This document shows, piece after piece, positions 3,026-47,615 of a stretch of 64,000 bases of DNA. Both the position numbers and the translations under genes were made by a program. Every line of letters begins with the position of its first letter. The stretch's first letter is position 1. The notes under the pieces were generated by a model. It saw nothing but the letters and a program-made list of their open reading frames with translations, was not told the DNA's origin and made no database searches. The stretch is taken from the NCBI RefSeq assembly GCF_964204645.1, contig NC_134028.1:17429653-17493652 (forward strand), read 5' to 3'. Source of the stretch: Tubulanus polymorphus (Eukaryota > Animalia > Nemertea).

Positions 3026-3074
3026 CACAGTAATCCAACATATACCTGACCGAGTAAATTTCCAAATCGACCTT

Positions 3075-9259: not shown

Positions 9260-9861
9260 TATTTTTCAACAAAATCGGATAATAAGGAGCAGTTGTTGAA
9301 CGATTTAATAGAACATTAAGAACAAGAATGTGGAAATATTTTACAGCAAATAGTACTTTTAAATGGATTGATGTTTTACCAAAATTGATAGAAGGATATA
9401 ATAATTCTTATCATTCTTCTATTGGAATGAAACCTATTGATGCTAGAAAACCTGAAAATGCTGAAATTGTTTGGAATAATTTATATGGAGCATTTCTTGT
9501 AGATGATTTTGGTGAACCTAAATTTAAAGTTGGTCAAAATGTTAGAATTTCTAAGTATAAAAAGATATTTGACAAAGGATACGATCGAAATTTTACTAGG
9601 GAAATATATAAAATAAAAAAGGTAATAACAACAAAACCATATGTCTATAAATTAGAAGATTTAGATGGTGAAGAAGTTGATGGGTATTTTTATGAAGAAG
9701 AATTGAGTTTAACTACTGAAATCTAGAACAAGAATATAAAATTGAAAAAGTATTAAAAACAAAACCTGTTAAAAGAAAAAAATATTCTTTAGTAAAATGG
9801 GTTGGATGGCCAGATAAATTCAATGAATGGATATTATCAAGTAAAATTAAAAATATAAATG
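9260..9861 (+). pseudogene. Polinton/Maverick retroviral-type integrase, C-terminal part with chromodomain
   Basis: AVVERFNRTLRTRMWKYFT..YNNSYHSSIGMKP..KFKVGQNVRISK..GYFYEEEL. After a frameshift: EYKIEKVLK..LVKWVGWPDKFNEWI (chromodomain). Confidence 0.9.
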
Positions 9862-13554: not shown

Positions 13555-14182
13555 ATGAATAAGGAATTATTTATATTTGAGCCTCATAATATGTTAATTT
13601 CTGGCGTAACAAATTGTGGAAAAACTTATTTTATATTAGATTTATTAGAAACTGTTTATAAAAACTATTTTGGTAATATAGTATTATTTTGTCCAACATA
13701 TGAATTTAATCAAACTTATGATAGAAATATTACTAGAAATAATAAATTTATTATATTAGATCCTAAAACAGTAAAAGAAAATTTAGATAATTGTATTAAA
13801 ATAGCAATTGATATTTATAAAGGATCAAATACATTATTCATTATAGATGATTGTGCAAATTTACATGATTAAAAAATTAGAGAGAGTGAGTTATGCTATT
13901 TAGCTTTCTCTGGGAGACATTTCGGGATAACAACATGGGTTTTAAATCAAAAATATAATTCAATTGTTGAAGACTTTAGGGAGAATATAAGATTTCTAGT
14001 TTTATTTTTTAAATAAAGATAGAAAATCTATGAAAAATGCGCTTGAGGAAAATGATATTATTCCGCATGATTTACATAATGAATATATGGATAAATTGAA
14101 AAATAATAAAAGATCAAAATTACTATTTAGATTACAACACCCATTTAAATATGAATTTATTCAAATTCAACTAGCTTGTTAA
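13555..14182 (+). pseudogene. Polinton A32/FtsK-like packaging ATPase
   Basis: Walker A GVTNCGKT and Walker B LFIIDD. GRHFG..LNQKY..FREN follows a premature stop at 13870, and there is a later frameshift. Confidence 0.9.
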
Positions 14183-15361: not shown

Positions 15362-15511
15362 TATTTTAGAAAAAAAGCAAAAAAATAATTTTTTTTGATT
15401 AATTGAATATCTCACTACTTTTGTCTATCTATGCGGAGCAATTAAATTGTCCAGATAAGTCATTTCTGATTCTAGATATTCATTATTTTTATTAATTTAT
15501 TTTTCTAAAAT

Positions 15512-16091: not shown

Positions 16092-16139
16092 GTCTCGACC
16101 TCTCGACCTCTGGTATGAAAACGCCATTTCCTAATTACT
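16092..16139. mobile_element. Polinton terminus (outer arm ending TTACT) abutting the middle of a pPolB gene
   Basis: CTCGACCTCTCGACCTCTGGTATGAAAACGCCATTTCCTAATTACT aligns with 19435-19480. Confidence 0.75.
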
Positions 16140-19071
16140 TACAACAAAGAAGTAACCAGTCTCTGAATCATCTGCAATATCTAGAATTCTTTTCTTCCAA
16201 TCAAATTTATCATTATTTTCATGTTGTAAAACTTCAGTTATTTCAAATACTACATAAGGTCGTGGTTCCATCATTGCCCAACCATATAGATTATTTGCAT
16301 CTATATATAATAACTTATATCCAGGGTTATCATTTACATTAAAATATCTATCGCCTAATACACCTGAAACTCCTTCTCTTATAGATTTTTCAAATAATAA
16401 TAATTGATCTATATTTGTTAACAAATCCATTTTTATATCTGTAAATTTTAATCCACAATCCCATGTTAAACCTGGTGATGAATAACAATGACAAGGATCA
16501 ATGTTAAAATATTTTAAGTTTACATCTCTAAACCTTTCAAATATATCAGTTAATAATAATACATCTGATTTTAAATATAAATCCTAATAATACTAATTGC
16601 CCATGATTTTTCATTCCAAAATGATTCCAAATATTCAATGTTCTATTATATACTTCATCTTTAACATATTCATTTTTTAATTCATCATAGAATTGTTCTT
16701 TTATAAGTTCAGTTATATTAAAATCATTATGATTTTTACAGAAAGAATATGGAATCGCTCCTTTATATCTCATTAATTGGAAATCATCATTATTTGGGTA
16801 GTGTTGTTTTAATATTTTTAATTCATCATCAACTAATGATTTTGATAAGTTATCTAATGAACTATTTAAAAATCTATATGAATCTATAAATCTTAGGCAA
16901 CCAAATTGGAATGATGTATAATTCTCAGATGTTCTAGCTAACATTTTAAATTCATAAGTTGGTATTTTATCTTTTGATCTATTTGAATTTAATCTTTCTA
17001 TTTCATTATTGATTTCTTCTATTTTATGACATAACTGTTTGATAAATAAATGTGCATCATATCCTGATGGATTATGAAATATAACTGGAACAAAATTGAT
17101 TTTCTTTGCTTGCAAATTACAATTCTCATGCGCTGCGCCTCTAAACTTTCCATTCAAATGATCATGGTCTCTTACTTTTTTATCTTTATAATTAAATATC
17201 TTTTCACAATAATAACATTTACCTGCAAACACAAATTCTTCTTTATCTTCTTCTGTCATTATCTTTTCACAATAATAACATTTACCTGCAAACACAAATT
17301 CTTCTTTATCTTCTTCTGTCATTATCATTTCTTTATTTGTATTCAATAATTTACTAAATCTTATTTCATATTCAATTAATAAGTCACAAAAATGATTGAT
17401 AACATTTTCATTTCTATAATGATAATATTCACTTTCAATTAGTTCTGCATAATCAGATTTTATATATAACCCGAAAGCTGCAGCCGATTGATGAATCTTT
17501 TTAATAGTATTTGCTTTTGGTGGTTCATCTGAAAAATCATTTTCATTAGAATTTAATTTCTTTCTTTTATAATATATTTCTTTTCTATCTTGATCAGTTA
17601 ATTCTTTATTAAATGATTCAAAATCTCCATATATAACAAATGGTACTTTATTTTTGTAATCATATTTTTGAATTCTAATATCTTATCATTTTCATTTGGT
17701 AAAACTAATTTACAATAATCATGATTTTCACATAATTGTTTATGATTTAATAATGTACTTTCATTACTGAATCTATGTAAACATTTTCTACAAAGATATA
17801 TTTTATGGTGATCATTTTCTGATTTAAAAAAAAAATCGATTTGTTTAATCCACATATAATGATTTTCATAATATAGTATCTATAAGATCATTTGAATCAT
17901 AATCTTTTGATAGGTATAAAGGTTCTAATGTATGATGTTTTATATTGTTACCTTTTGTTTTTGGTAATTTGATTAAATCAAATACATTTATTTATAAATT
18001 ATTATCTCTTTCTATTTTTGGGATATTTTAAATTCTAACAGGATACTTATCTATCTTATAATTATTTTCAAATTGTTTATAATTTTTTAATCTAAAACTA
18101 TGTGTAATATCTTCTGTTTGGTGTAAGCAACTTATAATTGTCCATAGAAAACATTTATCATCAAAATTTTGTACATTTATAACAGCATTAGTTTTAAATG
18201 GTAGTTTAATATAACTTGATGCTTCAATATCTGGTTCTTTATAATATGATACATTATTTTCATCTATTGGTTTTGATTTAGTTAACTTATTATATTTTGT
18301 GTTATACACATGTAAAGTCATAAATATTATCTCATCAAATATTAAACCAGATCCTTCAAAATATTTCTCTTCTATTTTAGTTTTTATTTCATTATAACAT
18401 TTATCTAATTTATCATCTATATGTTGTTTAGATATAATATGTTGTGAATGAGAATTTATATTATATATTGGTTTATCTTCAGATTTTATAAATTTAACTT
18501 TAGAAGATATACTAATTTTAGGGTATTCAACATCAGTAATTATTTTCATAATATTTTTCATATTTTCTAAATGTTTTTTATTTTCTTCTAATGTTTTACC
18601 TTTATGAAATTTAAACTCAATAGCTGCTGGACCAATATCACTTTTAAATGCTTCGGTTATTTCTATATCTTTTTTATTATCTAATGAATTAATATAATTT
18701 CTTACATCTTCCATGTATGGTCTTTTATTGTTTAATTTATTTCTTATTCTTTTAATTATCTTATGTTTATTATCATCGTCATTATCAAAATAATCTTCAC
18801 CTAAAATATCATTATTCATATTTCTAATATGACTTTTAGATTTTAAATGTTCATTATAATATCTTTTATCACTGAATGATTGATTACATGTACCACATTT
18901 ATATATTTCTTTTTCATTCTTTAATTCATCTAATTTAGTTTCTAATATATCATCTTCATATTCTAATTTCAATTTATTCTCTAAATGTGTTTTAGTTTTA
19001 TTGTGTCTTGATTTTTGGGATTTATCTATATTCATTTTACACGTTGAACAGTAGTACTTATTTGTTTCCAT
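16140..19071 (-). pseudogene. Protein-primed family B DNA polymerase, copy 1 (N-terminus to just past motif A)
   Basis: N-terminal C2H2-like fingers; SSYIKLP..INVQN.DDKCFLW; PFVIYGDFES; RDHDHLNGKFRGAAHENCNL; FHN.SGYDAH; RFIDSYRF; YLKSDV; LYIDANNLYGWAM. Multiple frameshifts. Confidence 0.95.
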
Positions 19072-19480
19072 TTTAATACTAATTTTTTTTCTAAATTGAT
19101 TTTAGAAGTTCTTCATTTATATTTTATTCATTTATATGTTATTCAATGATTTAAATATGAATTATTTCAATCACACTTTACTGACACTTTTAATGTTTAA
19201 AAATCTAACCCATACAAATATAAATATTGAAATATGTTTAAAATATATCTATATATCTATTTATAAGAGCTCGTTAATTACTCGTTACTTTTTACTCACA
19301 CTTTACTAACACTTTTATATTGAATAAGCTATCAATTTATATGTTATTCATATATATTTTATTCATGTATATGAATACTTTAAGAGTAATAGGGGTAATG
19401 GGCTTTCATATCAAATTTTTCATTTTTTTACGAGCTCGACCTTTCGACCTTTGGTATGAAAGCCCATTACCCCTATTACT
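19072..19480. repeat. Polinton terminal repeat region ending in a palindrome (19385-19480)
   Basis: AGTAATAGGGGTAATGGGCTTTCATA ... TATGAAAGCCCATTACCCCTATTACT. Subterminal (T)TTACTCACAC motifs are shared with 25490-25790. Confidence 0.8.
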
Positions 19481-22788: not shown

Positions 22789-24202
22789 TACATTGATTGA
22801 CAGCAGGAGCTCAGCCAACCGCATGGAGCAGTCTAGCCGTTTTATGAAACAAAATGCTCCACGAAATTTCTTTAAAAATCGCCACAAATTCATCGATTTC
22901 TCTTAAATGAACGCGATATTCAAAATTCCATTTCCAACAGATTTTAGCCGCATGATGAAGCTACATTTTGCACATAAATATAGTAGATTGCATGACTTCG
23001 TGTCAAAGTTATAACCTCATTTGTTAGCAAAAATTCGATTTTGGACCCATTACAACATAACAACATCAGATAAAAAAAGAGAAACAAATAGATTGGTCAA
23101 ATAATGTAAGTCTACCGTTTTACCATCCTGTACCTAATTTTTTGTATGCCTACAATTTTATGAACTGTAACAGTAGAAAAGCGAGTGAGAGAAGGTATGA
23201 ATGCGAGGGTGAGTGGGAAGTGTGTATTTGGGTACTTGATGCTACAAGTGAAAACTTTAAACAGGTTCACCCTGCAAATATATATGTTAAAAAACAATTA
23301 TGTATGTACTACTTTATTATATAACTCATGTTTATTAGCAAAATAAAGAATAATAATAATAATAATATACGCATGAACCAATCGTCTGGATTGACCAAAA
23401 CGATCTTGAATGATTTTAACAGCATGAGAAAACGTTCCGCCGCCGGACGACCAATAGGGTTAGACCTGGGAAACCAAACGACGTAAAGCCAAACAAACAA
23501 TCATAAGCGGGCCTCCCTCAGCTGCTCAGTGACACCGACGCCGGCATCGCTCTCTGTGCTTACGTATAACCGGTTGATCAACGTACCTATTGTGCCTCAG
23601 AGGATCTTGCATTCAGAAAAATCGTTCTGTTATTCTGTATTATTCTGTTATTATTCTGTAGGGCCTAGCAGTTCATGCAAACAACCACAGTCAGTCGAGA
23701 TTACCCTAGCAGTAGTACATCTTCGATACGAATCTCGTGTCGCAAGTGCCGGAACTTTTGTATTAAATGGAGTTTTTTTATACAAATCTTGATTGATATA
23801 AACACTTAGCTGGGAAATGATGGGAAAAATCAGAATAAACCAGTTTGGTCTTTTTAACAGAATCGCATTAATGAGGTTTAACAATACAAATAGCCCAGGT
23901 TAAATCGTTCGGCAGAAAAATGAAATTCATTTTAGTAATTGGTAATGTGTTTGTTCATACCAAAGGTCGAAGGGTCGAGCTCGTAAAAAATAAAAGAATT
24001 CTTGCTTTCTTACTTTCTTGGCAAGAATCTTGGTTTCTTACTCGTACCTCTCGTACGTAGATATATAAATAGTTTTGTAAAAATTATAAATATAAATTAT
24101 TAATCTTGGTATAGAAATTTAAGTGAAAACATACAATTTATTCATTTTTATATATTTCAGCCAATTTAACAGTCTATTGCTTAATTTAAATTATGTAACC
24201 TA

Positions 24203-24415
24203 TCATTTAATTCGTGAAATATATCTATGATTTCTCAAACTCTTTTTATTTTTATATTTCTTATTGCATATTTCACAACACTTAATATTATTCAATCTAT
24301 CTGAAATATAATTTATGTTATCTTTTAAATCAGCGTATCTAATCTTGCAATTATCATAGAATTCTAACAACTGTTTTATACTATGAATTGAAAATGAAAC
24401 TAATCCTGTAAGCAT
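24203..24415 (-). CDS. Small C2H2-like zinc finger protein (possibly partial)
   Basis: CEICNKKYKNKKSLRNH. Confidence 0.5.
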   Translation of the reverse strand: MLTGLVSFSIHSIKQLLEFYDNCKIRYADLKDNINYISDRLNNIKCCEICNKKYKNKKSLRNHRYISRIK

Positions 24416-24851
24416 AATGATTGATTTAATATTCTGTTGATTTTTATATATTAGATGTAATAAATTTAATATATTTTAACTCATTTAATTATTCGATTAA
24501 TTCCCTAATCTGATTCAATAACTTTTTTATGATTATTTCTATGATTGTTTCCATTTAACTTCTTTAACTTTATTTTCAATTATTTACTCAATTTTATATT
24601 TTCATTCATCAAATCTTACTAATATTTTCATAGTAAAAGAAAAGCGCAGCCAATATTAACCCTCCTGCTATAAGATAATGTTTTAAATCAATTTTTCCCA
24701 GTTGGAATGAAACCATCCATTTATTTAACGAAAAAAAATTAAAAGATTAATAAGTAATTTGATTTATCTTATTTTGAATATGAATATTTAGAGTTGAAAT
24801 ATTATTGAGTTATGATATTTGAAATTTTCCAATTACTTATACAGCTTAATC

Positions 24852-25490
24852 TTATTTCAATATATATTTATTATTCTTTTCACATTCGATATGTTTAACT
24901 GTTTGATAATGTTTTGATTTATGTGATCTTAAATATTTACCTCCACAATAACAATACACTTTTTCATTAGGATTGAATTTTCTAAATTCATTATCTAAAT
25001 TACATTGAACTGCAATATCTTTGAATGATTTTTCATTATCTAATTCACATTGAATTCCAATATTTGATGAATTTTCATTATAAATAATTTGTTTATTATC
25101 AAAATTGAAATAATATAATTGTCTTTTTTCAATTCTTAAGTTAATCAAATCATTATAATCTTTTGAAAGTATTATATTACTTTTTCTTTCATTGAAAGGA
25201 ATTTTAAGAATATTTATTATGTTTTCATCTAAAGTTCCTTTAAAATTTAAAACTGTATTAAATATTTTAGGATTTTTGATTCCATTATCAAAAGCATCTA
25301 CTAGTTCAGTAATTAAATATGTTTCATTTGATAATATTTGATTAATCATAGTAATGTTATCAATTTTATAATGTCTTGTGGACACTAAATTTGTTGCTGA
25401 AATATAATTTTTAATGTTAAACTGTGAAAATATCTTATTGGTTTCATTGATTTCGATTTTGAATTTGGGTTCTTCTTCTTCTGTCTTCAT
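24852..25490 (-). CDS. 212-aa virus-like protein with C-terminal CxCG..H..H zinc finger
   Basis: Intact ORF ending KVYCYCGGKYLRSHKSKHYQTVKH. Its ATG directly follows the shared subterminal region. Confidence 0.65.
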   Translation of the reverse strand: MKTEEEEPKFKIEINETNKIFSQFNIKNYISATNLVSTRHYKIDNITMINQILSNETYLITELVDAFDNGIKNPKIFNTVLNFKGTLDENIINILKIPFNERKSNIILSKDYNDLINLRIEKRQLYYFNFDNKQIIYNENSSNIGIQCELDNEKSFKDIAVQCNLDNEFRKFNPNEKVYCYCGGKYLRSHKSKHYQTVKHIECEKNNKYILK

Positions 25491-26266
25491 TTTTATAACA
25501 AAAGTTTTATTAAAATGAATCTACCACATATAAATATAAATATTCAATGATTTAAATATGAATTATTTCACTCACGCTTTACTCACACTTTATATGTTAA
25601 AAATCAAGAATTTAACGCATATAAATATGAGTATTCAATGTTTTAAATATGAATTATTTTACTCACACTTTTTATGTTAAAAATTTATATTTTATCATTC
25701 GAAATCTATATTTGATCTTATTTTCTAGATTATTATGCTAATATTTTACTCTCACTTTTAAAACATGAATATTTTAAGAGTTAAGAGTAAATGGTAATGT
25801 GTTTGTTTTGTTCATAACAAAGGTTGAAGGGGCGAGTGTGTAAAAAATAAAAATAAATTCATTTTCAGCATACATGAAAATCGTACTAACACAAATTGAC
25901 CTTAAGACCTCTCAATCAACATCGCCATAGAACATTTGTCAGCAGATGTAATACATTAACCACAGCAATAACCACCACTAATACCATACCAGAGTATAAT
26001 CTTCTTACCAAAAATGCTTCAAGGACCATGGGCCTCTTGTTGGAAAATAGCCCGTACCTATTCAAGTAATTTGTATAAATATGGACTAACAATAAGTTGG
26101 TTATGAAACAGTTCAAAAAATTGTATTAAGTACAAAATCATCATTCTAATCGGTTGAAAAATGGAAGGCATACAAAAATATCTTCTACATTTTCTATATC
26201 TACGTAAATGAACAATCCCTTAAAGCAAGTTTTTGTCAAAGCTGATTAATAGTTTCCGTTTAATGG

Positions 26267-29945: not shown

Positions 29946-30049
29946 TAATTAGTCGTTACTTCACTACTCATAAAGATATCGAAAATGTATGTTGAATGAG
30001 AAGTATACTCGCCAGAGAAGCAAGGTAAATGCAGCCATCAGAATAACAC

Positions 30050-31240
30050 CAGCAAAAAACAATATGAAATAAAAAAGTTAGTTGATGTTACAAAAGAAAT
30101 TGAACACAAAATATTAAAATTAGAAAAGATAAAAACTAAATATGGAGATAAAGTATCAGCAAATTTAAGTTACTGTAATTTTAGTTCAACGCGAAAATTT
30201 AAAGTATTTCTACCTGATAAATGAGTTTCATTGAGTACAGAGGAATTGAAAGATTTAGAAGGATTTAAAATAATCTATCATGGAAAAAATGAAGACGGTC
30301 ATCATGATTTAGAAATTGTTGATTAAATAAAAAATAAATTGATAAAAAAATTAATTAAATATTAAGAATCCGAAATGACTTATCTGGACAATTTAATTGT
30401 TCCACATAGATAGACAAAAGTAGTGAGATATTTAATTAATTAAAAATGAAATTATTTTTTTTTGCTTCTTTTCTAAAATATTAATCCATTTTTATTTTTA
30501 ATAGCAGTAAATTCAGAATTATTAATATCATGAATTTTATTTGATTTTTTATGCCAACTACACCCAATCAAAATGAATACAATTACAAATCCAGTTGTAA
30601 AATATAAATATTCATCAAACATTCTATTCATCTAAACGCTCTATCAGAAGGAGTAGAAATAACAATATTTTCACCATTTTTATTAACATCTTTATTATTT
30701 ATTTTTTCTTTTAAAGCTTTTTTAAATTCTCTTGATTTAATTCCTAATTGCCGAGACCATTCAATTTGTTTCTGTGATCTCAGTTTTTTCTTCACAGTTA
30801 ATTCTTTCACTTCGCTCATTTATTGTAGAAAAATGTTTACTTTCAATACTTGAAAATGTCATAAATCCAGTTGATAATAATTTCATAAATCCACCTAATT
30901 GAAATTAAATATCCAATCCATTTATTTAATTCAGTCATAACTAAATTTTCATTTTTCAAATCGGATTATAATCTATTTTCATCTTAAATTGGTAGCATAT
31001 ATTGACATAATTTACTATAACCTTTTACTACATTTTCTGATATCGCATCATTAATTCTAGCTATTCTCGCAGTTTCATAAATCTAAAATAATTTAATAAT
31101 TTCATCTGATTTCATTGTATCTAATTCATTATAACTTAAATTTTTACTAATAAAACTTTTACATTTCCCAGATGCTATTAACATTTCTAATTTATGTTTG
31201 CAATAAAGATAATATTCATAATTATTATTTGTAGTAATAT
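30050..31240. mobile_element. Polinton block, inverted diverged paralog of 14590-15790
   Basis: TKYG ORF on + (30050-30326) and the two ATPase-downstream ORFs on -. The reverse complement aligns throughout. Confidence 0.88.
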
Positions 31241-33643
31241 CATACATCGATAATATAATTATAATATAATTATAATTCCATTTGATGAATTAACAAACAA
31301 AAAGAAACAAAGAGAGCGAGATGAAATGTGGTACAATATAGAACTTTATTTTAATGAGAAAAATGAAATGGAAGAACCTAAATAATTAAATGAAAATGAA
31401 GAAGCCAATAGTGATTTCGAGTATGATGATATTGATTTATGTTTTTTTAATAACCACAAGGTACTGGTTTTATTCCATCATCCAAAATGTATCTTTTATC
31501 GTCGAATGGATTTAATCTAGTTTTTTCAACTTCATTAATGTACATTTCGTGATCTTCTAATCTTAAACAATTCATTTTATGTTTCATAACTATTGCGTTA
31601 TATAAACACTTTATATAATCTTGAAATTCTATACGTTTATCAACCACGTGCTTTGTTATTCCTTTTAACTTTTTTCCTTCATGATCTTTTGTTCTGTAAC
31701 TATTCATTTTACTTCTTATCCCAACAAATTCAATCATTTCATCACCCCCTAATTCATCTTTAAATTTACCAGGAATTTTCTTATTATCATTGCTAAATAA
31801 TTCATGATCTTTTGGATAATTGCTAAAGTCAAAATGATGTTTTAATGTTTTTAAGTCTTTTGTTATGTCATTTGTCTTGATTTTTAGTATGTAGGCGTCC
31901 GTATTTAAGCAAATTAATGGAAATCCACAGTTAAATGTTCCATTTTCAGTTGATAAATCATAAACATAATCTGATGGGTTATATATTTCAAATAAATCTC
32001 TAACTTCTTCAGTTCATTCATTTTCTACATGGCTTAAATTAAAGCAATTTGGTTTAGATTTAATCAATGCAATATTCATATTAAAACCTAATGAACTACA
32101 TAACACATTTAACCCACTTATTGCACATTTTCCTTTCTGAGCCAAAGATATTGTTTTGTGGTTTTCTAAACTTTTTGTTCCATCTGCTGCGTAGAATCCA
32201 ATGAGGAACCATTTTCTTAAATTATATTTTGCATTTAATACATAATCTGGAACTATATTTTTTTTTGTTGAAGTAATTCTTTTAACTATTGCATGAATAT
32301 AGAATTCATCATTATATTTAATTGCAAAATCTTTAGGGTTATTCACAAGTATTCTATAAACTGCTGTTTCATATGATCCACCATTCTAAATGTTTTATTT
32401 GGATAAACTTCTTCACAGTATTTTTTAATTCTTTTAATTTCAAATCTAGATTGCATAAATACCAACAATATTGAGTGCGACTAATATATTTATAAACACC
32501 CGCTGAACCATCTCCGATAAAACATCCTTTGATGAAATATTCTTTTTCTTCTAATGTTTCTGGTTCTATATTATAGATATTATCAATTATTTCATCAAAT
32601 GACCTATGATCCATTCTTGGGTAAAATCTTTTATGTAATAATTCATCTCCAATTTTTAGCATTGGTTGACGTCTATGACGTCATGCCAATGCAAGTAAAA
32701 TGGACCGAAAATAGTAGTACGAAAAAATAGCGCCAACTCTTCTCATTTTCATAATAACTTCAAATTGTCACTCCGTTCACGTAAAACATTAGAAACAGCT
32801 GAAAAAGACTAAAAAAAATGTTTCAATTATTCTTCACAACATAGCGTCGCCAGATTTCTGATTTAATGGTCCAAAAAGTTATTCGATTGCATTTTTCTCG
32901 TTCATTATCTGGTAGATGAGAGTGGGTTAAACAATCGCGTAGCGATATGTACGCATTGACATTGGCAGTAAAGAATGGGGAACAGCCTCTTCTGAATAGA
33001 AAAACATAAAATTATGTACCTCCAGTTTATAAATATCACAGTGTTTGGATATCTTTGTTACTCCAACTATCAGTATCCATGGGATTATTTGGGATTAATC
33101 CTCAGCGTCAGAATACGTATTTCTAGAGCAGTGGAACGGCAGCCTACTCGTAACTGAAACCCGTATGTGATCGTGCGGGAACGCCTTTACTAAAGTTAAA
33201 ACCATTTCATGATGACACGAAACATCAAACGGTAAACGGTAGGCTACCACCATGATACGATATCACCAATAAAGATGGATCATTTTATTCAATTTTACCA
33301 GAGTTGTTTATTGGAGGAAAATATCATTGTTAGGTACGGCGAGAACAACCATGTTGTATCATCAATCAGTTGACTGACATTGTAAAATTCGATTCGGCTA
33401 TATTCTAATATAGGTTTTCACTTTAGGACGCCCTACCCGCCTGCTGCACACTCATAAGGCGGTAGCACCCTCTTACGCACTCGGCAGAGATTCGCTTTGT
33501 AATGCGCGCCGGGAAAAAATACCTTTTATTATCTTTTTCCATGCGTTAAACAACAGTGATTGAATTTACGCGTTGTTTGTCGTAAATTACAATATTGCGA
33601 TGGTTATTTGCCGCTGCTGTAGTATTTTGGAATTGAATCGAGC

Positions 33644-34362
33644 GGCCTCGGTAGCTCAGTGAGATAAGGCGTGATGCTGTTGAATCCACGATCAATGCCG
33701 AGTGACAAGTGGGTTCGAGTCCTGCAGGCTGCGAACAGTGTGCGGGCAACACTTCAAAGGCCGTACCGGCGTGAGGTTAAATGAACAATCCAATAGGAAT
33801 AGTCTTGGGAAACCAAGATCCAAACGACGTACGTAATGCCAATCAAACAAAAAGACAAACAAACAATCATCAGCCGGCCTCAGTGACACCAACGCCGGCA
33901 TCGCTCGCTGCGACGTTTTGCATGCGTACAGGCATCAGAGCTTGGAGCTCTAAGATCAGAGGGTCTTGCAATTGCATTCAGAAAAAATCGTTCTGTTTTT
34001 GTTTTCATTATTCAGTGGGGCCTAACAGTTCATGCGTAAAAATGGGTTTTTGTATCCAAATCTTGATTGATATAAATATCTTGGCTGGGACATGATGGAA
34101 AACATCAGAATAAACTAGTTCCGTCTTTTTAAAAGAATCGCATTAATGAGGTTTAACAGTACAAATAGCCTAGGCTAAATCGTTCGGCAGAAAATAAATT
34201 CATTTTCAGGAATGAAATCGTACTAGACAAATATAGACCTTAAAGTCTGTGGTCCTCCCAATCAACATCGTCATAGAAGATTTGCCGGCAGATGTAAAAC
34301 ATTATAACCACTTAATACCACAGTATAATCTACCGATGCTTCAAGGCCCATGGGCCTCTTGT
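33644..34362 (+). mobile_element. tRNA-derived SINE-like repeat
   Basis: A-box-like TAGCTCAGTGAG (33652) and B-box GGTTCGAGTCC (33712). The downstream body is repeated at 23460-26040. Confidence 0.62.
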
Positions 34363-34477
34363 TATATCAGTTGGTTTTATTTCATCACCATTTTTCTAAT
34401 TAAACTATGATCTTCTGTAACATCTACAAATCCTAATTTAGTTCTAACTCTATATATTATTTTATTTGTTTTATGTC

Positions 34478-35883
34478 TATTATTATTATTATTATCATTA
34501 TTATACATGTTTAAGTGCCCTGTCCAGATTAGTGAAACTGCTCCAAAGCACTTACAAATACAGAAATACGACGTACAATAAAATCTGATGATAAAAACAT
34601 TACAATATTGAATTTAAAAACAGTGAACATTCAGTAAGACAATTTCAATTGAAGGCAATTCTAAAATAATGTGCTTTTAAATTCTTTTTAAAACACTCAA
34701 TAGACTTACTGCATTTAAGATGACTAAGCAAGGCATTCCAAGTTTTTGGGCCATAGACTCCAAAAGACTTGTCACCAAATTGGCTAAACGTACGTGGAAT
34801 AAAAAGTAAATTAAAATTAACAGATCTAAGATTTCGCTATGGTCTATAAAAACTAATCATGTCACAGAGATAATGAGGAGCCTCATTTTTAAGGATAGAA
34901 AATATCAAAACACAGATTTTAAAATCTATTCTAAAGCGGACTGGCAGCCAATGAAGGTCTGCTAAAACAGGAGAAATGTGTTCACTTCGTTTAGTGAGGG
35001 TAACTATTCTAGCTGCCACATTTGGTACCTTTTGTAATCTGTAAATCTGTGTCGCCGGGATATTAGATAACAAAGAATTACAATAGTCTTGCCTAGATGT
35101 AACCAAAGCATGAATAATTGACTTGGTAGAATCCGTAGATAGATACTTACGAATACAACCAATGTTTCTCATATGGAAATAACAGGATTTTATGACGGAT
35201 GACACATGATCCGTCATAGACATGGATCTATCAAAAATAGCACCTAGATTCCGTACTGAGTGAGCAGGTACTACAGAAACAGAACCAACATGCAGTTGTA
35301 CATCAGTAGGTGGTACATAACGAGGAGAACAGAAAAACAAAGACTCGGTTTTGTCACAATTTTTGTCACTATCTCTGTGATAATTGGTAAAAGATCGTCT
35401 AAACGCTCTTTTAAAAGCCATGTTGGCAAAGGATCCAATTCACAGGATTTACTAGCTGAACTAGTTATTATTTTCCTTATCTCATCCTGCGTTGCTAAAG
35501 AAAAAGTTGATAGACTATTAAACTCCGGAAGTGAGTGGTCACTGCCTAAATTCTCAGAACGTGGTAAGGGCATATCAGCACGGATATCACTTATCTTATC
35601 CAAAAACTTATTAAACTGATTTGCTAAAGCCTCGGCTGACTCATAATGTGGTAAAACTGGCACAGATGATGAACCAAGGAGGTGTTTCACTACTGAGAAA
35701 ACACTTTTGGAGTTACGACCACAATCGATGATTTTATTGTTGAAGTACTGCCTCCTTGTTTCAACGATCATGTGGTTAACAAAACGACACAGCAGTTGAT
35801 ACATCTGCCTATGAACTTCCAGCTTACTCTTTCGCTACTGCCGTTCCAAGCAACGCCGTTCCCGTTTAGTATCATGAAGTTCG
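34478..35883 (-). mobile_element. L2/CR1-clade LINE, 5-prime truncated, RT core deleted
   Basis: KSCELDPLPTWLLK; VRNLGAIFD; HALVTSR.DYCNSLL; LQKV.N.AARIV; LHWLPV..RIDFK. 3-prime (AAT)n tail at about 34480-34503. Confidence 0.88.
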
Positions 35884-37852
35884 TCTAATTATATTTTTTA
35901 ATTTTTTCCATCCATTTTTTGTCCAAACATCCATTAATCCATTAATTTGTATTAATCCTTTTTCACCATATGAAATATAAGATTTATTTTGATTAGGAAT
36001 TATTTCTGAAATTCTTCTAAATAATATTTGATTATTGTATTTTTATAGTATTTGGGTATCAGCTGTTACAGAATCAAAATATAATATTTCAATATGCGTT
36101 TCCCCAAAAATTGGTTGTAAATATTATAATAGAAATCATTCATTAATAATTTTGATATTTCTAAAACAGTTGAACCAATGAATATAGGTTTATAAAATTT
36201 CATTGACGCTCTTTTTAATTTTACTGCTGTTAAATAATCTTTTATTTCCTAAGTGTCTAGGACTTGATTGTAAATTTCTCAGTCGTTCAGAATTATTTGC
36301 TAATTCAATATCATTTCTATTTCTTATATTTTCACATGTTTTTCCATAAAAAACTATTATTCATTAATTTAAAAAAATCTTTATCAAGATCTGTTTTAGA
36401 TATTGTCCTCTGTTGAGTATTAAAATCTATATATTTTTCTAACCACTTCGATGGATTAAATTCAATATATCGATATACATTCTTTAATTTCATTCCTTGT
36501 TTTAGATAACACATTCTAAAACATTTAACATTCTATAATGAACGATATAATTGTATTTATTATTTTGTGATAATATTGATTTTTCTGTAAAAACATGATC
36601 TTTGGGTTTTATTTTTTTCTGATATTCACTTAAATAACTATCATCTACAGCTAAATGTTCTTGGCAATATGGTAAGTTTCTTGTTTTACACTTTATGTTA
36701 TCAGGATATTCTCAATCAACTACAAATAAATAACCAATTGGTGCTTCATCTTTTAAACCCATAATTGCACAATCAGTTTTATCATCATTTTCAACTTCTG
36801 TTAATATAAAATTTTTGTATGGTTGAGGTTGCATCATTGCTCAACCATATAAATTATTGGCGTCAATATATAATAATTTATATTCATCATCCAATTAACT
36901 ATCTCCCATAACACCACTAATTTCACCTCTAATTGATTTTTTAAAATAATAAAACCATGTATGGTTCTTTTAATAAATCTAATTCTACATTTGTATATTT
37001 TAAACCGCATTGCCTGGTTAAACCAGGACTTAAATAACAATAACAAGGATCAACATTAAAATGATTCAAATTAACTTCTCAAATTTTTCAAATATATCAG
37101 CCAATATCATAACATCTGATTTTAAATATAAATCTACTAATTCACCGTGATTTTCTATCTTAAAGTGATTCCAAATATTTAATGTTCTATTAAATACTTC
37201 ATCTTTCACATACTCATCTTTTAATTGATCATAAAATTGTTCTTTTATTAATTCCATTACATAAAAATCATCATGTGTTTTATAAAATGAATAAGGAATT
37301 GCACCTTTAAATCTCAATAATTTAAAATCTTGTTCATTTGGGTAATAATTTCGAGTTATTATCAAATCATTATCAACTAAACTTTTTGCTAAACTATCTA
37401 ATGAACTTGCTAGAAATCTATAAGAATCTAAAAATCTCAAACAACCAAATTGAAATGAAATGTAATTTTCAGAAGTCTTAGCTAATAGTTTAAAATCATA
37501 TTTTCTTACATTTGCATCATTCCATAACACTATTCAATTGAGAATTTACAATACTTAAAGGACTACTGAACAATTTTGTTTTTTCCCTTGAATCAATCCA
37601 GTAAGATGTAATAAATGATAATCTAATGACCTTAGGTATATTTGTTTTCATTTCGAATACTTTTAAGAGGTTTTTTCTTGCTACGGCAAACCAAAATATA
37701 CGTAGTCGCGATGCTCAGCAATCTCGGGTAATCCCCTGTGGTGACGTCAGCGCGAGATGTTGAGAACCCGGAAGTATTATCAGCCTCGTTCAGATAGCGA
37801 TAACAACAGGAGATAAAGTGATTATAAAAAGATTTTAAAACGATTTTAAACT

Positions 37853-40800
37853 ATGCCACGGCGTTGTTTGTACTACAATTGTAGTACACAAGATTCCTTG
37901 TTATACAAATGGCCGCGTGATCCAAATATTGCTAGAGTATGGACTGCTTTTGTGAGTAAAAAGCGAGCACAATGGAAGCCTTCGTCATCAAGTGTGCTCT
38001 GTAGAAAACATTTCACAACGGAGGCCTTCGACAATTACATGGAGTAAAATGCTGGTTTTGCTAATAGGTTTGTATATTAAAAACATCAATCCCATAAAAT
38101 AAACTGATACCTTGATTCTACAGCTTTTGAAACAAATCATATTTAATTCACTTTCGAGTGACCTGGGTCTAAGTGTGTCATGTATAATCAGGCGACTTGT
38201 AATTAGTTTGGAAACAACTGACTATTATGATGCATTTTTCACTTCAGTCTTCGATTAAAGAAAGATTCTGTACCAACTTTGCATCTCAATGATTCTGTTG
38301 TGTCGAATTCTGTTGACTCGCCTCAGAAAGCAGATTTTTTGAGTCCGCAGATGCAGAAAGGACGTTCAGCTTTTGAAAAGAGACGGAGGCTAGCGATGGT
38401 CAATGATGCGACTCAACCAAGTGTAGCTGAACCAGAGCTTCAAAGTATTGACTTTGAAATTGATGGTGATGGCGATCTCGATAAGATGTGGGAAACTGTA
38501 GCTGTTCAAACTGAACCTATCACATCTAGTAAAGGTAATTACATCCATTCGAAATCATGAATAAGATAGTTGCCTACCTACTTTTAATTTCATATTTCAT
38601 TTGTTGATTATAGAAATTGAATTAGATTTGATCAGTATTATTCAAAAATATACTTTTAATTTCATATTTCATTTGTTGATTATAGAAATTGAATTGAATT
38701 TAATCATTATTATTTAAAAATATTTTTTCAGCAATCCAAACTCTCAAATGGAAACCTAAGTACTTTTGTCAACGTCGACATTTCCCAAAATATTCAAAAC
38801 CGAAAATCAAAAGCTACAAAATCAGACGCACCTCACGTGGGGTTCAATGTTCCCTTCTATCCCCAAAGACAAGACCCAAGAAGCGATACAGAAAGGCTAG
38901 TCAGAGCAGTGTCTCATCAAACAAGACAGATTCTGATGAAGAATATCGTCCAGAGTGCGACACGGAGACTGAATCGGATGATGAATTTCAAGAAGAAAGT
39001 TTGAAATTTGAAGAAATGAAGTAAGATGATCATTACATGTAGCCTACCCTCAAGTTAGATATCATGACATAGAAATTTGTATTTGATTTTGTCGAGAGAT
39101 CAATACTAAGATCTGTGAAATTATAGAAGTATTTTTACTTGCAGGAATGAAGATGACGTTGATTTTCAGGATCAGACCAAGTTTATTGTTTATCAGTCTG
39201 CTCTGCTGATACTATTTCAATTCTGCAGTATCTGCAAGGGTGAAAATCTTGTCTCGAAGAGTGTGTCTTCTACCTGTCTGACAGTTAGAACCCAGTGTAA
39301 GCTGTGTAACCACAGGACCACATGGAAAAGTGAGCCATCCATCAAGGGTATTCCCGTTACCAGTATATTATTGAGTGTTGGAATACTACTGACAGGAAGC
39401 CTAACAGCAAAGGTGATCAGGTTGTTTAAGTAAGTTGAAACCAATGCTTGTCATCAAATTGTGCCTCAATTTTCATCGACTTTTAAAAAATACATTTCAA
39501 TATATAATTTCAAACATTCATTGTCAATCCAGCTTCATAAAAATTCAGTGCCTTTCAACGCGAACAGTGTATAACCATCATTCGAAATACATCCATGCCG
39601 CTATACGACAAGTTTGGGAAAGGAAACGCGAGTCTATGCTTGATAGTCTCAAATCATCTCCACTGTTGATAGGAGGAGATGGACGCTGTGACTCACCTGG
39701 CCACTCGGCATGTACTGCTCATACTCAATAATGAATCTGGAGACCAATAAAATAATAACTTCTGAGTTAGTCCAAGTAAGTATGCCTTGTAGTTATTCAG
39801 GGTTTATGAATGTGGATTCGTTTTTAGGTATTTTGTTTTTTTAATGTATAATTCAGTCAAATGAAGTGACATCATCAAATGCGATGGAACTAGAAGGCTT
39901 AAAAAGATGCGCAGAAAAACTGAAGAAATTCAAAATCACAGCTCTCGTAACTGATATGCATTTGTCCGTTAGAAAATGGGCACGCGACACTTGGAAAATT
40001 CCACATTACTATGATACTTGGCATTGTGTCAAAGGTGCGTAAGTAACACAATTTTGTAAATGGTTTCTTAAGGCTTGTTCACAAAGATCTACGTTTTGTT
40101 TTTCATTTTATCTGTCAAGCAGTCACAAGAAAACTTGAACGCCTAGGAAAGCAAAAAGACATGGAGGTTATCAAAGAGTGGATACCCAATATCAAAGTCC
40201 ATTTGTACTGGTGTGCCCAATCCTCAGAATCAGGAGACCACGAGACAATAAAACAGAAATGGCTGACATGCATACAGCATGTTCAAAATAATCATGAGAA
40301 CTGTCTCCACGCATCATATTCTAAAAAAAAGAAATGGTTAATTCCAGGTATATTTTTCTATTCTCTATTTAATAGCTACCCGGTTAGATAATTAAGTGTA
40401 AATAATTGTTTTCATTTTGATTTATTGATCTTTTAATTTTTTAGGATCCAATGTTGCATCTGAATTTGAGAATCTTGCAACTATCACGCGGACAGTTAAT
40501 CAGATATCCAATATGTCTAGCTATGGACAAACCAGCAGTATCGAATGCTTTCATAACATCTTAAATCATTTTGCCCCTAAGATGATAGATTTCTTTTACG
40601 TCGGAATGCTCAGTAGGTATGTAAATACATGTAAAAATATGAATTTACAAAATCACATCATTGTTCTACCTGGTACATTATCATTCTATCTTCATTTCAA
40701 ATTCCATTAGGATCTGTATAGCAATACTTCACTATAACGAAAATTCTGAACGAATTCAAGCTGAAACGAAGACTGGTAATCAGCGATGGCAGGTGCACTA

Positions 40801-41172
40801 TCCAAAGTATAAAGATGGTCACGTTTTAAGAAAAATTCTGACAAAAATCACTCATGGTAGGCTGAACCTAACAAAGTGTGATATTTTTTACTAAAAATTA
40901 CTCGGGTTCATTAAAAAAAATTTTTTTTCAGATTACGTCAAGTTATGCTTTGCAGAAGTTTTTAACAACATAAAGAGACGCCCGCATGATTCCTCTAAAA
41001 TAAATGTACCAGCCACATTGATCGCGGATCGCAAAACGGTAGTTAAGGATGAAGCAGTAATCTACCATACATCAAGATTCAAGAAGGTTACCGAAAAGGT
41101 CAAAGGAAAATCAAAATCAACTGTCCTCGCTACTCAACCTAAAAAGCGAACACCGAATCTATTGATGACGTG
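37853..41172 (+). pseudogene. Kolobok transposase (THAP + DDE), about 10 exons, premature stops
   Basis: THAP MPRRCLYYNC..WP..W..LCRKHF; GDGRCDSPGHSA; SSNAMELEG; LVTD.H; HYYDTWH; QTSSIECFHNILNHFAPK; LHYNEN. Confidence 0.88.
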
Positions 41173-42571: not shown

Positions 42572-43690
42572 TTAATTGCGCTTCAGATATAATATAAATG
42601 TGCATTTAAGAAATTTAAGCTTCCTTTTTTCTTTTTCATGAATAATTGTATCCCATCTTTTGTATTTTGTAGTTTTTTCCCCAGAACCATGTAATAAATT
42701 ATCCTCTGTCGTTCTAAAATCTAACCATAATGCATATTTATTACCGGTATAATAATCAATTTGATTAATATTACAATTTTCAGATGATTTATTTTTTTCA
42801 TTCATAAAATGTTTTCTAATTTCTGGCCACTGATCTATCATTCTCGTTCCTTGACAAAATATTTTATTTGCTATGCCTTCGATAGTTATTTCTACTTTTG
42901 TTATTTCAGGATTATAATACTTATCAACCTGTACTGCGCCATTAGAATATGTAGCAATGGTAACAAATATCAATACACCTTTAATAGATCTTCTTGGGAA
43001 GTTAATATTCTCATTAATTATTTCATCATTTGCATTAATATTTAAAGTTTTAAATTTATCAATATAATCATATAATAATGAAAATCCTTGATTGTATTGA
43101 GTTTGAATTATGCTAGCAATATTTTCATCAGTTACTGTATCATATTCTAAACATATATTCGATAATTTATATCCCATATCTTTAACAACGCTAGATAATA
43201 CTATTTCATTAACAGGGGCAAATGTTATCTCGAATATAATATCTTCTTGAATTGCATATTTATATAAAGGTGCATTATTATTTATCAATTCAAAATCTAA
43301 TGGAATTTTATATTTGCTTCCATGAATCTTTTTTATCAAATTATCTGTAGCATTAATTATTATTGCATTATTAGCTTCTGATCTTAATTCATTATGGTTT
43401 TCTGATTGGATTCCTTGAAATATCATATTATTTCTATTTTCTTTTGTCAACCATCCAACACTATCAACAACATAATCATTATCATGGCCAGTTACTTTTA
43501 TAACAGCTGATAAATAAATACTATTTGGAACTTAAAAAGTATTTTGATTTAATCTCGGGATTCTAACATATAAAGTTTCATCAGGATTAATATTAGAAGG
43601 ATTATGAGTAATTATGTGATGAGATCTCCCTGCTTTAATAGCATTAGATATTCTAGAATTCTTAGAAGGATTTATGTAACTCTCACTCAT
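42572..43690 (-). pseudogene. Polinton major capsid protein; last 13 codons and stop displaced to 37558-37517
   Basis: THNPSNINPDETLYVRIP; YKIPLDF; YKLSNICLEYDTV; RSIKGVL; YNPEITKVEITIEG; KYALWLDFRT..LHGSG; MHIYIISEAQL|SIVNSQLNSVME*. Confidence 0.88.
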
Positions 43691-43706
43691 TTATTTAAGA
43701 GAAAAA

Positions 43707-45121
43707 AATTGATTATTTATTTTGGATCATATTCAAACCCAAAAATAATTGCACTTACAACTGTAATTAAAAATAAAATAATACGTTCAGCAGCAAAGTT
43801 AAGAATATTCCCAGCAGATTTCAATATAAAACCAACAAACGATGCTATAATTCCGGGTAAAGCTGCAGCAGATTTTTTAGATAGTTACCATAGATATTTT
43901 GCTAATTGCTTTAAACCATCTTTAACTTTATCCTGTATAGAATTATTATCATTTGGAGGTTTATCCGGTTTATTGGGTGTAGGCCTAGATTTTAATGAAG
44001 TTGATATTGCTAAACCTATTGTTGTGAATACCATAGTTACAGCTGTTAGAATTGAAAGAATTGTTATACCTTCTAGTTTAAATAATAATTTTATTCTATC
44101 TTTTAATGATATTTCAGAAATTGGTTTTATCAACAAATCTTTAAAAATAACTTTTAATCCATTAATATTATAATCACATGATTTTTTTGATAATTTAATT
44201 TCTTCTTTCTGAAATTCTATGTTATATTCTAAATCATCTTTTTCTTTTTTTAAATTCGATTTCTTCAATAACTTTATTATCTCTATCTAATTTTAATTGT
44301 TCTATTTCTCAAATTTTATCAGTTCTATCTTTTTCTTAAGTTCTAATTTTAAAATCTCTTATACTTTTATCACGTACAATTTTATCAGATGCAAGTCTTT
44401 TACTGATAATTTATCTAATTGCTTTATCAGAAAATATATTTAAATCTTCTAATTCTTGATCTGTTGCATCAAGTAATCCATTTGGTAAAAGTTTTTCAAT
44501 TAAAACTTTATTTGATTTAAGTTTACCAGAAGTTGTTTCTGTTTCTACATTATTATTGATTGTTTCAAATAAGTCATTAATTCTTTGTTTAAATACTCTT
44601 TTATTTTGATTTATTTCTTCTTGTGTAACATTTTCTATTTCATTATTGCTTATTGTTTTAATTCTAGATGGTTCTAAATTACTCAATGTTGATTCTGCTA
44701 AAATGTTTGTTTTGTTTTTTATAAGAGGTATCAATATAATAATCATCTTTCAAATGATAATAATATTCACCATCTAAAAATTTTAATTCTCTTACTAAAT
44801 ATCTAGCACCTCTATCATTTATATTATATCCAGATCTTTCAAATATAGGTTTGAAATTATAAATATATTCATTATATTCTAAATTTTGTTTTACTAAATC
44901 TGGATTTTCATTTTCGGGATTTATTCTCGATTTAGGTTTTTTTTATCAAACTCGTCTGTTGACGGGGCTTTAGAACCACTATCTGCTAAATTAGAATTAT
45001 ATGCTGACCCATCATCATTATCAATATTAGTTTCATCATCATTATAATCATCATCAATATATCCTTCATTATTATTTCCCATTTCTCCCATTTCATAAGC
45101 TTCTCCACCTTCTACATCCAT
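43707..45121 (-). pseudogene. Polinton protein with acidic N-terminus, coiled region and C-terminal membrane helices
   Basis: Fragments MDVEGGEAYEMGEM.., LEGITILSILTAVTMVFTTIGLAI and KSAAALPGIIASFVGFILK, joined across frameshifts. Confidence 0.65.
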
Positions 45122-45137
45122 TTATATCTTATAAAAA

Positions 45138-46145
45138 TTAAAATCTAAAATACGATATTCCTCCTATTACAATTCCTATACAAGTTATAGCTAATTTAGT
45201 ATTTTCATGGGATTTATTATCATTATTAGTTTTAATTATTTCATGTTGAATATTATCAGTTTTTATAATTTCTGTAGTATTGTAATCTTTTATTTTAGAA
45301 TCATTATCCAATTTGATATTCTTAGTTTTAGTTTCTGTTGATTGAATATGTTTTTTAATTTTTTCGCCTTCCATTAATTTTGGAGCAGTGATAATCTTTT
45401 TATTTATGTCATTTAATCCAAATGAATTGTTTATTGTTGCAGTCTTAATCAAATTATTGCAACCAATTATATTTCCCATTTTTAAAACTAAATCATTAGA
45501 AATAATTAATAAATTAGGGCCTATACATTAATTTAATCTAATATGTGATTTATCTAAATAATTTTGGTACCTGACTATATTTTCTGGAATCGATCTATTT
45601 TTATCATTATGAATGGAATCTTTGGAATAATACTTTGAATTGTTTTTTTGTATCAAATGAAGTATTATCATTTCCAACTATTGGTTATCTTGTTTCAACT
45701 TTCGCACCAAAAATACAAATCAAATATATTCTATTTCATTTAATATTATTCGGATTCGAAAATATGTGTGAAATCTAAATATTGTGTGAATAAATTTTAA
45801 ATCACAATAATTCAAATTTTTATCTAAGTTATTTAAATGATTATTCCAACTTATACCACCGCCTGTTGTTGCACAATAAACAGCAAAATTCAATTGGTTC
45901 TGCCAATATTTCGTATTAGATTTTACTTTATATATATGATATTCATCTCGAGTAAAAGTAACTTCATATGTATTAAATATATTTTCCATTTTAGAAATAA
46001 AAAACTGTGTTTCAGTAACATAAATTTCTAGATTAATTAATGAATTTAAAACTAAATTTTTATATGTAATATTTTTATTAAAATATATTGCAGGAATATT
46101 ATATTTAATTGATTTATTATATTGGAAAGCTTTTGGAAACCCCAT
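45138..46145 (-). pseudogene. Polinton/adintovirus-type ORF of unknown function, internally deleted
   Basis: YWQNQLNFAVYCATTGGGISW..FRFHTYFRIRIIL, with a C-terminal hydrophobic tail. Confidence 0.6.
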
Positions 46146-46149
46146 TTTT

Positions 46150-47550: not shown

Positions 47551-47615
47551 TTTAAAATCAAACCCAAAACATATACTCGGCCCAACAGTTATATTCAGTT
47601 ATATAGTTAAAATAA

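Follow-up and report, generated by a model that had tools for sequence, protein, structure and literature searches.

What does an endonuclease-like reading frame signify when it lies inside a broken polymerase gene of a eukaryotic chromosome, and from where could it have come? We address this question for a 64,000-nucleotide stretch of contig NC_134028.1 (positions 17,429,653 to 17,493,652 of assembly GCF_964204645.1, deposited as Tubulanus polymorphus; the whole stretch is called the window below), in which a protein-primed DNA polymerase of family B on the minus strand (copy B, traceable from 37509 to 31450) is interrupted in its catalytic motif C. A sequence-only reading had taken the interruption for an intein bearing a LAGLIDADG endonuclease of two motifs and had claimed that it resembles the polymerase inteins of giant viruses, that it crossed from an RNA-primed viral polymerase (rPolB) to a protein-primed Polinton polymerase (pPolB) during co-infection, and that it could have spread by homing among the Polinton copies of one genome. 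Our analyses point, with a probability of about 0.8, to a decayed intein of Hint plus two-motif LAGLIDADG type at the site YFD/TDA (a slash marks the splice junction throughout) of a Polinton pPolB, whose intact relatives would splice themselves out and likely home.

Tracing the polymerase revealed an intein that extends from 36072 to 31903 with all of its parts present, now lying in three pieces separated by two host-repeat insertions (Table 1). Its junctions read ...EILYFD/SVTADT and ...PLICLN/TDAYIL, which places the site between the D and the T of motif C. Overall, the flanking extein is 71.7% identical to the intein-free polymerase P0285 over 608 aligned residues. The N-extein is scattered over three frames in nine pieces, damaged by no fewer than six frameshifts and three in-frame stops, and piece by piece shows 53-77% identity to P0285 (ungapped tblastn), while the C-extein is 74% identical to P0285 residues 1183-1337 and is the same kind of continuation as follows the intein of the relative P0002. 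Piece 1 of the intein, which carries an in-frame stop at 36043-36045, matches six giant-virus-type inteins (E values of 1e-5 to 0.011, tblastn) and also takes its place in an alignment with inteins of the motif C site (pol-c inteins), and within piece 2 positions 34478-34392 are 89.7% identical to P0169 and 65-74% identical to the inteins of giant-virus type (tblastn).

Both LAGLIDADG helices were found in piece 3, on the minus strand, where the sequence-only reading had put them: YFIKGCFIGDGSAG at 32498-32539, ending in GDGS, and WFLIGFYAADGTK at 32173-32211, ending in ADGT, the latter preceded by IVPDYVLNA and followed by QKGKCAISGLNVLCSSLGFN. The helices are ~100 residues apart, and each retains its acidic residue in the window copy. 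The same reading had counted 63 + 254 surviving codons and had placed the intein at 32014-32662; that interval does hold the endonuclease core, but splicing sequence at the C-terminal end extends past it as far as 31903, and the codons fall into three pieces (~63, ~38 and ~251), the 38-codon piece between the insertions having gone uncounted. Piece 3 is itself broken by frameshifts near 32432 and 32367 and by a TGA stop at 32014-32016. Interrupted by two insertions and further disabled by a total of three frameshifts and a pair of in-frame stops, the window's intein is dead, incapable of splicing or homing.

The two insertions are of host origin. Insertion 1 has a step in G+C content at either border, in a window where AT-rich stretches (20-27% G+C) alternate with stretches of 34-41%, and its 200-residue open reading frame (ORF), the tail of a non-long-terminal-repeat (non-LTR) retrotransposon, matched 137 proteins at E≤1e-10, relatives of the RVT_1/Exo_endo_phos kind; the organism names among the 120 relatives listed are all animals (corals, fishes, abalone). 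Insertion 2 has partial copies elsewhere in the window, at 23765-23933 and 25850-26041. At the downstream edge of the intein, the first 12 bases (31891-31902, minus strand) are 8/12 G+C in a gene of ~25% G+C, and their first six letters equal the Mimivirus site as printed in Ogata 2005 (PMC549080), which could reflect target-site constraint or chance.

Table 1. Positions of the polymerase, intein, insertion and element features in the window.
Feature	Position	Strand	Description
N-extein remnant, copy B	36073..37509	-	corresponds to ~residues 701-1188 of P0285; ends ...EILYFD (motif C)
Intein piece 1	35884..36072	-	~63 codons: Ser1, SVTADTQIL, stop, ...VWTKNGWKKLKNIIR; N-terminal splicing blocks
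Insertion 1	34479..35883		1.4 kb; non-LTR retrotransposon fragment; minus-strand ORFs 34840-35439 and 35274-35834
Intein piece 2	34362..34478	-	~38 codons: RHKTNKIIYRVRTKLGFVDVTEDHSLI (block B, T..H), frameshift near 34395, KNGDEIKPTDI
Insertion 2	32656..34361		1706 bases; host repeat dispersed at high copy number; insertion private to this copy
Intein piece 3	31903..32655	-	~251 codons: KIGDELLH, both LAGLIDADG motifs, blocks F/G YVYDLSTENGTFNCGFPLICLN, terminal Asn
C-extein, copy B	31450..31902	-	open frame, 151 codons, begins TDAYILKIKTND...
Copy A, second protein-primed PolB	16140..19101	-	C2H2 fingers and HNH/Endonuclease_7-like insert
A32-like packaging ATPase fragment (Polinton hallmark)	13555..13869	+	Pfam Pox_A32 28.1 bits, cut-off 22.8
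Retroviral-type integrase, C-terminal part (Polinton hallmark)	9286..9723	+	50% identity, E 3e-43

To what extent can so damaged a sequence be identified as an intein? The piece holding motif 2 (32017-32346) scores above the Pfam cut-off for LAGLIDADG_3 (PF14528; 25.8 bits, cut-off 22.5), and the piece with motif 1, scanned alone, had no Pfam match. The residues expected of a splicing domain stand where they should: Ser1 follows directly on the N-extein (YFD/S at 36072-36070), block B carries its Thr and His (VDVTEDHSL, ~34430-34400), and a terminal Asn (31905-31903) is followed by Thr+1 from 31902 (...PLICLN/TDA). Across relatives these features are kept: Ser1 is present in every pol-c row from rPolB and in 9/9 of the Polinton-type rows whose sequence includes the start, the block B Thr and His and the terminal Asn are likewise conserved among Polinton-type relatives, and the catalytic Asp is found in 9/9 rows for motif 1 and in 15/16 rows reaching motif 2.

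The relative P0166 exceeds the Pfam cut-offs for Intein_splicing (PF14890; 41.9 versus 35.8 bits), LAGLIDADG_3 and Hom_end. Its AlphaFold model, with a pLDDT of ~85-95 over the intein part, matches inteins that bear homing endonucleases, namely the archaeal polymerase inteins PI-PkoII (Tko Pol-2; 2cw7, E 1.5e-13) and PI-PfuI (1dq3, 1.8e-13) and the VMA inteins TliVMA (7qsu, the best at 5e-15) and PI-SceI, all of which share the architecture of a Hint domain around a monomeric two-motif LAGLIDADG enzyme. Against the monomeric two-motif enzyme I-DmoI the template-modelling score (normalized to the target) is 0.74-0.77, with a root-mean-square deviation of 2.5 Å over ~175 columns. The likeness to the archaeal and VMA inteins is one of fold, whereas sequence identity in the fold alignments is 12-17% and PDB matches by sequence only are marginal (E 0.03-0.4). 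Collinear tblastn matches tie the window to this modelled fold, which belongs to the relative and not to the broken window copy. Together with the motif positions and the extein matches, these results support what the sequence-only reading had proposed, namely that motif C of a protein-primed polymerase houses an intein whose LAGLIDADG endonuclease has two motifs.

We then consider the host gene. On PF03175 (DNA_pol_B_2) the window's own polymerase pieces score 24.1 bits (37069-37533) and 22.2 bits (copy A) against a cut-off of 25.8. The window extein is, however, 56.6% identical to that of P0169, which scores 62.3 bits on the same family, and this value and the 71.7% to P0285 agree with the earlier prediction that the extein groups with Polintons. 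Intein-free relatives read ...MYFDTDSYILKIKTND across the motif C site. A protein-primed-type C-extein also follows the intein, as in the window, in P0002 (69% identical), P0006, P0014, P0050, P0081, P0104 and P0111, and among the 80 loci kept from a metagenome scan one, L082, is of Polinton type (frames of 1203 and 186 residues, with one break).

Searches with the polymerase part returned 4239 relatives with L082 as query and 3890 with P0169 (E≤1e-5), and among the 194 relatives listed the intein occurs in at least 11 (P0160-P0166 and P0169-P0172), the others listed that reach the site being uninterrupted. Sorting by pattern gave 104 empty sites and 81 unclassed relatives, which by eye are mostly uninterrupted variants such as D-C-D-S, GFDTDS and ASDTDS. 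Motif C of the form D-C-D-S instead of D-T-D-S, with Cys at +1, marks a large intein-free subfamily (P0173, P0181-P0187, P0190 and many more), which could be escape of the homing site or plain subfamily variation. One 1054-residue member of the family, P0288, bears the UniRef label 'Sulfurimonas sp.' and is probably a contaminant or comes from a mis-binned contig.

Turning to the kinship of the intein itself, we compared the in-frame part 31903-32346, its in-frame stop read as X, with 1.84 billion representative proteins. This revealed 336 matches at E≤1e-3 and 42 at E≤1e-10, the best at E 2.3e-62 and 69% identity, and on these numbers chance similarity was rejected. In a Pfam scan of the 46 top matches, DNA_pol_B (PF00136) occurred in 30, usually alongside the exo1 domain; a topoisomerase II accounted for one more, and PF03175 was found in 0/46. 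The rPolB relatives hold their intein as YGD/SVTxDTP...[HK]N/TDS, that is, at the pol-c site and with Ser as first residue. Full-length inteins of giant-virus type are collinear with all three window pieces (E 2e-31 for the 32.0-32.7 kb part, tblastn), and the segments SVTxDT, VWTxxGW, VDVTEDHSL and GxxLLH are common to both. SVTxDT, VWTxxGW and (L)KIGDxLLH, which the sequence-only reading had associated with the pol-c inteins of nucleocytoviruses, are all present in the window and aligned to the same segments of the giant-virus-type inteins. Polinton and giant-virus-type inteins are 37-43% identical over ~330-345 residues (E down to 6.5e-22) and occupy the same site, which bears out the proposed likeness to giant-virus PolB inteins; the window intein and that of P0169 are 59.4% identical over 345 residues.

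Viral metagenomes extend this picture. IMG/VR yielded 230 relatives, and the hosts of the best 80 are without exception RNA-primed polymerases, topoisomerase II or a polymerase of 'TDGFNF' type; many of these 80 are on contigs named GVMAG. For the collection scan alignment A3 was used, the twelve-row A2 having proved too divergent; with P0001 alone the IMG/VR scan found no relative, and with the C-extein it found one weak match of 27 residues. No hallmark capsid gene occurs within 16.5 kb of the giant-virus-labelled locus L002, and the giant-virus label of the relatives accordingly rests on the GVMAG contig names and the literature. Inteins of topoisomerase II and of the pol-b site fall outside the pol-c group in the trees, and the nearest sequence relatives are other pol-c inteins.

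That giant viruses carry pol-c inteins is textbook knowledge. The portion of Green 2018 (PMC5784728) that treats them counts 67 polymerase inteins across Phycodnaviridae, Iridoviridae and Mimiviridae, and the description of the Mimivirus pol-c intein in Ogata 2005 (PMC549080) gives Ser as first residue, Asn as last and Thr at +1. The window's element is like these inteins in its site between the D and the T of Y-x-D-T-D-S, in its first, last and +1 residues, in its two-motif LAGLIDADG core and in the segments named above (SVTxDTP, VWTxxGW, VDVTEDHSL, GxxLLH). It differs in its host, which is the PF03175-type, protein-primed polymerase of a Polinton that integrates and not an RNA-primed one (PF00136), in a penultimate residue that is not always His, and in that the window copy is dead.

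How, then, did one intein family come to occupy two kinds of polymerase? In an IQ-TREE analysis of 98 intein rows over 359 columns, run under a mixture model and with topoisomerase II inteins as the root, all 18 Polinton-type rows formed one clade with a Shimodaira-Hasegawa-like approximate likelihood ratio (SH-aLRT) of 100, and a FastTree split of the Polinton inteins into two groups disappeared once full-length Polinton inteins were added. In the quick maximum-likelihood tree this clade sits inside the rPolB pol-c clades (SH-aLRT 94 and 95). Subclades of Polinton inteins are 44-52% identical to each other, to which the 37-43% across polymerase families comes close, while the exteins of the two families belong to different Pfam families and have little in common beyond the catalytic motifs. 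On these comparisons, transfer of the intein between RNA-primed and protein-primed PolB is well supported. Over the 36 bases flanking the site, the window agrees with rPolB loci at 14-23 of 36 positions and with the Polinton locus L082 at 20 of 36, a likeness compatible with a jump at a shared Y-x-D-T-D-S coding site and suggestive only. The direction from giant virus to Polinton, and with it the co-infection scenario, is a conjecture.

Evaluating the Polinton-type relatives further, we asked what distribution the intein has among them. On a 64-row extein tree, the intein state has to change 11 times to account for 13 intein-plus rows, and well-supported branches force 10 or more of these changes; for six intein-plus rows the nearest neighbour is intein-minus. 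Shuffled labels gave a mean of 12.1 changes, with 113/500 shuffles as low, and the real labels thus need as many changes as random ones. Within the 90% cluster of P0163 (136 members, of which 40 were read and 15 listed), 7 of the listed members are intein-plus (1537-1539 residues), 6 lack exactly those columns and 2 stop short of the site. The N-exteins of intein-plus and intein-minus siblings are 98-100% identical, and identity falls to 90% over the 40 residues that precede the site, to 80% over the first 40 beyond it and to 92% over the next 40 (-40 to +79 in all) before returning to 98%. This pattern fits a homing cycle, and the sequence-only reading's appeal to homing gains from the interleaved alleles, the divergence centred on the site and the retained catalytic Asp. 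The co-conversion tracts for which it had suggested looking have a counterpart in the identity dip, but no donor was identified for the tract.

The source organism's own reads indicate that the window is one copy among many. We mapped raw reads under the same species label (run X5, ~12% of the run) at 85% likeness, which gave a read depth of 112-247 for the intein and 227-464 for the exteins; coverage was the lowest of the whole window in insertion 1 (9-48) and stood at ~930-1730 in insertion 2. A total of 163 reads with 88 start places join 32655 directly to 34362, skipping 1706 bases, which means that other copies have the intein without insertion 2 and argues that pieces 2 and 3 belong to one gene. 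The stop at 32014-32016 is missing from 165/167 reads, and at several of the frameshift places the reads that depart from the window's length make up between a third and nearly all of the total. From the depths and the joining reads together, the genome holds many further intein-bearing copies, roughly ten or more, some of them less broken. X1 showed one contig joint that leads from 31835 to 36124 by way of 27 additional letters, and there are loose ends at 36120-36124.

Three other accounts of these data have to be weighed. That the insert is a fixed nuclease domain of the polymerase and no intein draws on a real precedent, as HNH and VSR inserts are described in Polinton polymerases in the relevant part of Jeong 2023 (PMC10748475) and, in what a 2024 paper (PMC11161782) says of them, are taken by conjecture as a hint of 'intein invasions'. 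These are likewise nuclease modules within protein-primed polymerases, and the family studied here also carries an HNH/Endonuclease_7-like insert, in copy A and in L082. However, the inserts as described in PMC10748475 have no Hint domain, occupy other positions and are shared derived characters of whole clades, whereas the window's element is an entire intein, lies at motif C and varies in presence between copies that are otherwise nearly identical. It cuts the catalytic DTD, it has Ser1, the block B Thr and His, the terminal Asn and Thr+1, its relatives exceed the Intein_splicing cut-off and show the Hint fold in the model, and exactly 346 residues are absent from close relatives. On these points the fixed-domain account was rejected, and we regard it as extremely improbable. 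A transfer in the reverse direction, from a Polinton-like element to a giant virus, or descent of both from a third source (archaeal or other pol-c inteins), is a much more serious proposition, though still an unlikely one. When all 74 rPolB rows are held together, the log-likelihood is slightly better than for the nested tree (-43806.6 versus -43809.5, LG+F+G4), the approximately unbiased (AU) test does not reject it (p 0.536 versus 0.464), the mixture model also favours it (-42585.4 versus -42600.8), and the outgroup rows are merely C-terminal parts of 150 residues. Because a sister position does equally well in the AU test, nesting among the giant-virus inteins is not established; of the predicted crossing from viral rPolB to Polinton the transfer between families therefore stands and the direction does not, and the suggested comparison of intein and extein trees gave nesting in the quick tree only. 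Set against a reverse transfer are that nested placement, the greater number and diversity of rPolB pol-c inteins (108 versus 8 rows, 79/80 loci and 80/80 in searches) and the related endonuclease halves in other giant-virus-type genes (topoisomerase II, the pol-b site).

It is also conceivable, though improbable, that no homing has taken place, the intein having entered once in ancient times and descended vertically, with intein-free alleles arising by repeated exact loss through recombination and the endonuclease being a passenger, retained through chance or because it serves some other role. The evidence that favours this account is also what weighs against homing in ours: intein and extein identity are about equal in 10/10 pairs (59.4 versus 56.6, 70.1 versus 74.2, for example), the same three subclades appear in both trees, and no donor has been identified for the low-identity tract, where P0163 is no closer to the other sampled lineage. 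Matching divergences and subclades are explained equally well by homing between close relatives and by a long vertical residence interspersed with losses, and a tract without a donor could reflect escape changes in the intein-free alleles instead. Against an absence of homing stand the 10 or more changes of state forced among only 13 intein-plus rows, the confinement of the divergence between 98-99% identical siblings to ~40-80 residues around the site, as conversion tracts give, and the retention of both catalytic Asp and the splicing residues across subclades that are 44-52% identical, which argues for selection on the endonuclease. Other points likewise count against our identification of the element and its setting. 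The copy is broken in at least seven places, and function is therefore undemonstrable for it; its splicing-domain pieces, taken singly, had no Pfam match; single-piece searches of PDB sequences gave nothing significant or marginal hits (PI-PkoII at E 0.41, a VMA intein at E 0.03); and the penultimate His of block G is Leu in the window and Lys, Ser or His in relatives. A penultimate His is common in class 1 inteins and not universal. No exact empty-site joint (31902 to 36073) occurs among the read joints listed and no loose end at 36072/36073 among the loose ends listed, with 146 joints and 47 loose ends outside those listed. Lastly, the animal nature of the host, which the window's content makes likely, is drawn from one integrase match and from those relatives of a single retrotransposon ORF that carry an organism name.

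Having weighed these accounts, we read the history as probably one old entry into Polinton polymerases followed by a long cycle of homing among close relatives and of loss. The near-equal divergence of intein and extein speaks for old residence, and a recent spread among this genome's copies stays conjectural. In intact copies, Ser1, the block B Thr and His, the terminal Asn and Thr+1 would perform class 1 splicing and so restore the DTD of motif C. The monomeric LAGLIDADG enzyme would cut the uninterrupted motif C coding sequence of other copies, whether integrated or replicating, and repair off an intein-bearing copy would convert the cut site and drag some flanking sequence along. The single entry into protein-primed polymerases may have been a jump between rPolB and pPolB at the shared Y-x-D-T-D-S site, in one direction or the other.

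The remainder of the window contains further fragments of Polinton type. Copy A is 68-82% identical to P0285 residues 8-973 and 74.5% identical to copy B at the DNA level, with Pfam scores of 23.5 bits for Endonuclease_7 (cut-off 23.6) and 22.2 bits for DNA_pol_B_2; it ends before motifs A-C at GC-richer DNA (~15800-16140), and the state of its motif C is consequently unreadable. The integrase fragment matches residues 281-423 of P0304, a coral protein bearing rve (PF00665). This fragment and the ATPase fragment lie 18-28 kb from the intein among nested insertions, and may belong to the same copy or to another. A 1.2-kb inverted repeat, 85% identical and with small ORFs (14582-15801, plus strand; 30039-31243, minus strand), adjoins the end of copy B and could be a terminal inverted repeat or mark two elements lying tail to tail. 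An AT-rich fragment at 24206-25520 (minus strand, 20% G+C), which carries a C2H2 finger resembling that at the polymerases' N-terminus, is possibly part of a third element, and AT-rich ORFs of up to 319 residues at 42575-48373 (minus strand), which had no Pfam match, are candidates for capsid or other virion genes. Long ORFs in GC-richer DNA at 38231-41170 (plus strand) and 10403-12650 (minus strand) look like nested host transposons; two of these GC-richer long ORFs were scanned and gave no Pfam match at E≤0.01. Some 8 kb at 447-8447 (minus strand) consist of tandem repeats open in several frames, with units FGFVARDNS.FWF.RPRQF.ILVLSPATIHY, and resemble a host satellite array.

What is real here is a pol-c family intein in a new kind of host gene. 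In the literature that we searched, no published account reports a Polinton polymerase with a true intein. A 2006 paper on Polintons may mention an intein, and the novelty would then be lower. Viral-like polymerases with inteins have been reported from nuclear scaffolds of algae and protists, in an account whose pertinent passages mention neither Polintons nor animals (Gallot-Lavallée 2023). Metazoan genomes are held to be without inteins in the section of Green 2018 (PMC5784728) that uses this absence to argue for intein-targeted drugs, and a full Hint plus LAGLIDADG intein in a Polinton polymerase of a likely animal genome bears on that view. The wider proposition, that animal genomes hold true inteins, that this family jumped between rPolB and Polinton polymerases at Y-x-D-T-D-S, and that it has since acted as a homing drive converting copies and their flanks in multi-copy endogenous viruses, we put forward tentatively, at slightly less than even odds. 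The element offers a concrete case of an intein crossing between polymerase families, which bears on how homing endonucleases reach new genes, and a multi-copy, self-replicating family with plus and minus copies would provide a natural setting in which homing, co-conversion and loss may proceed within one genome.

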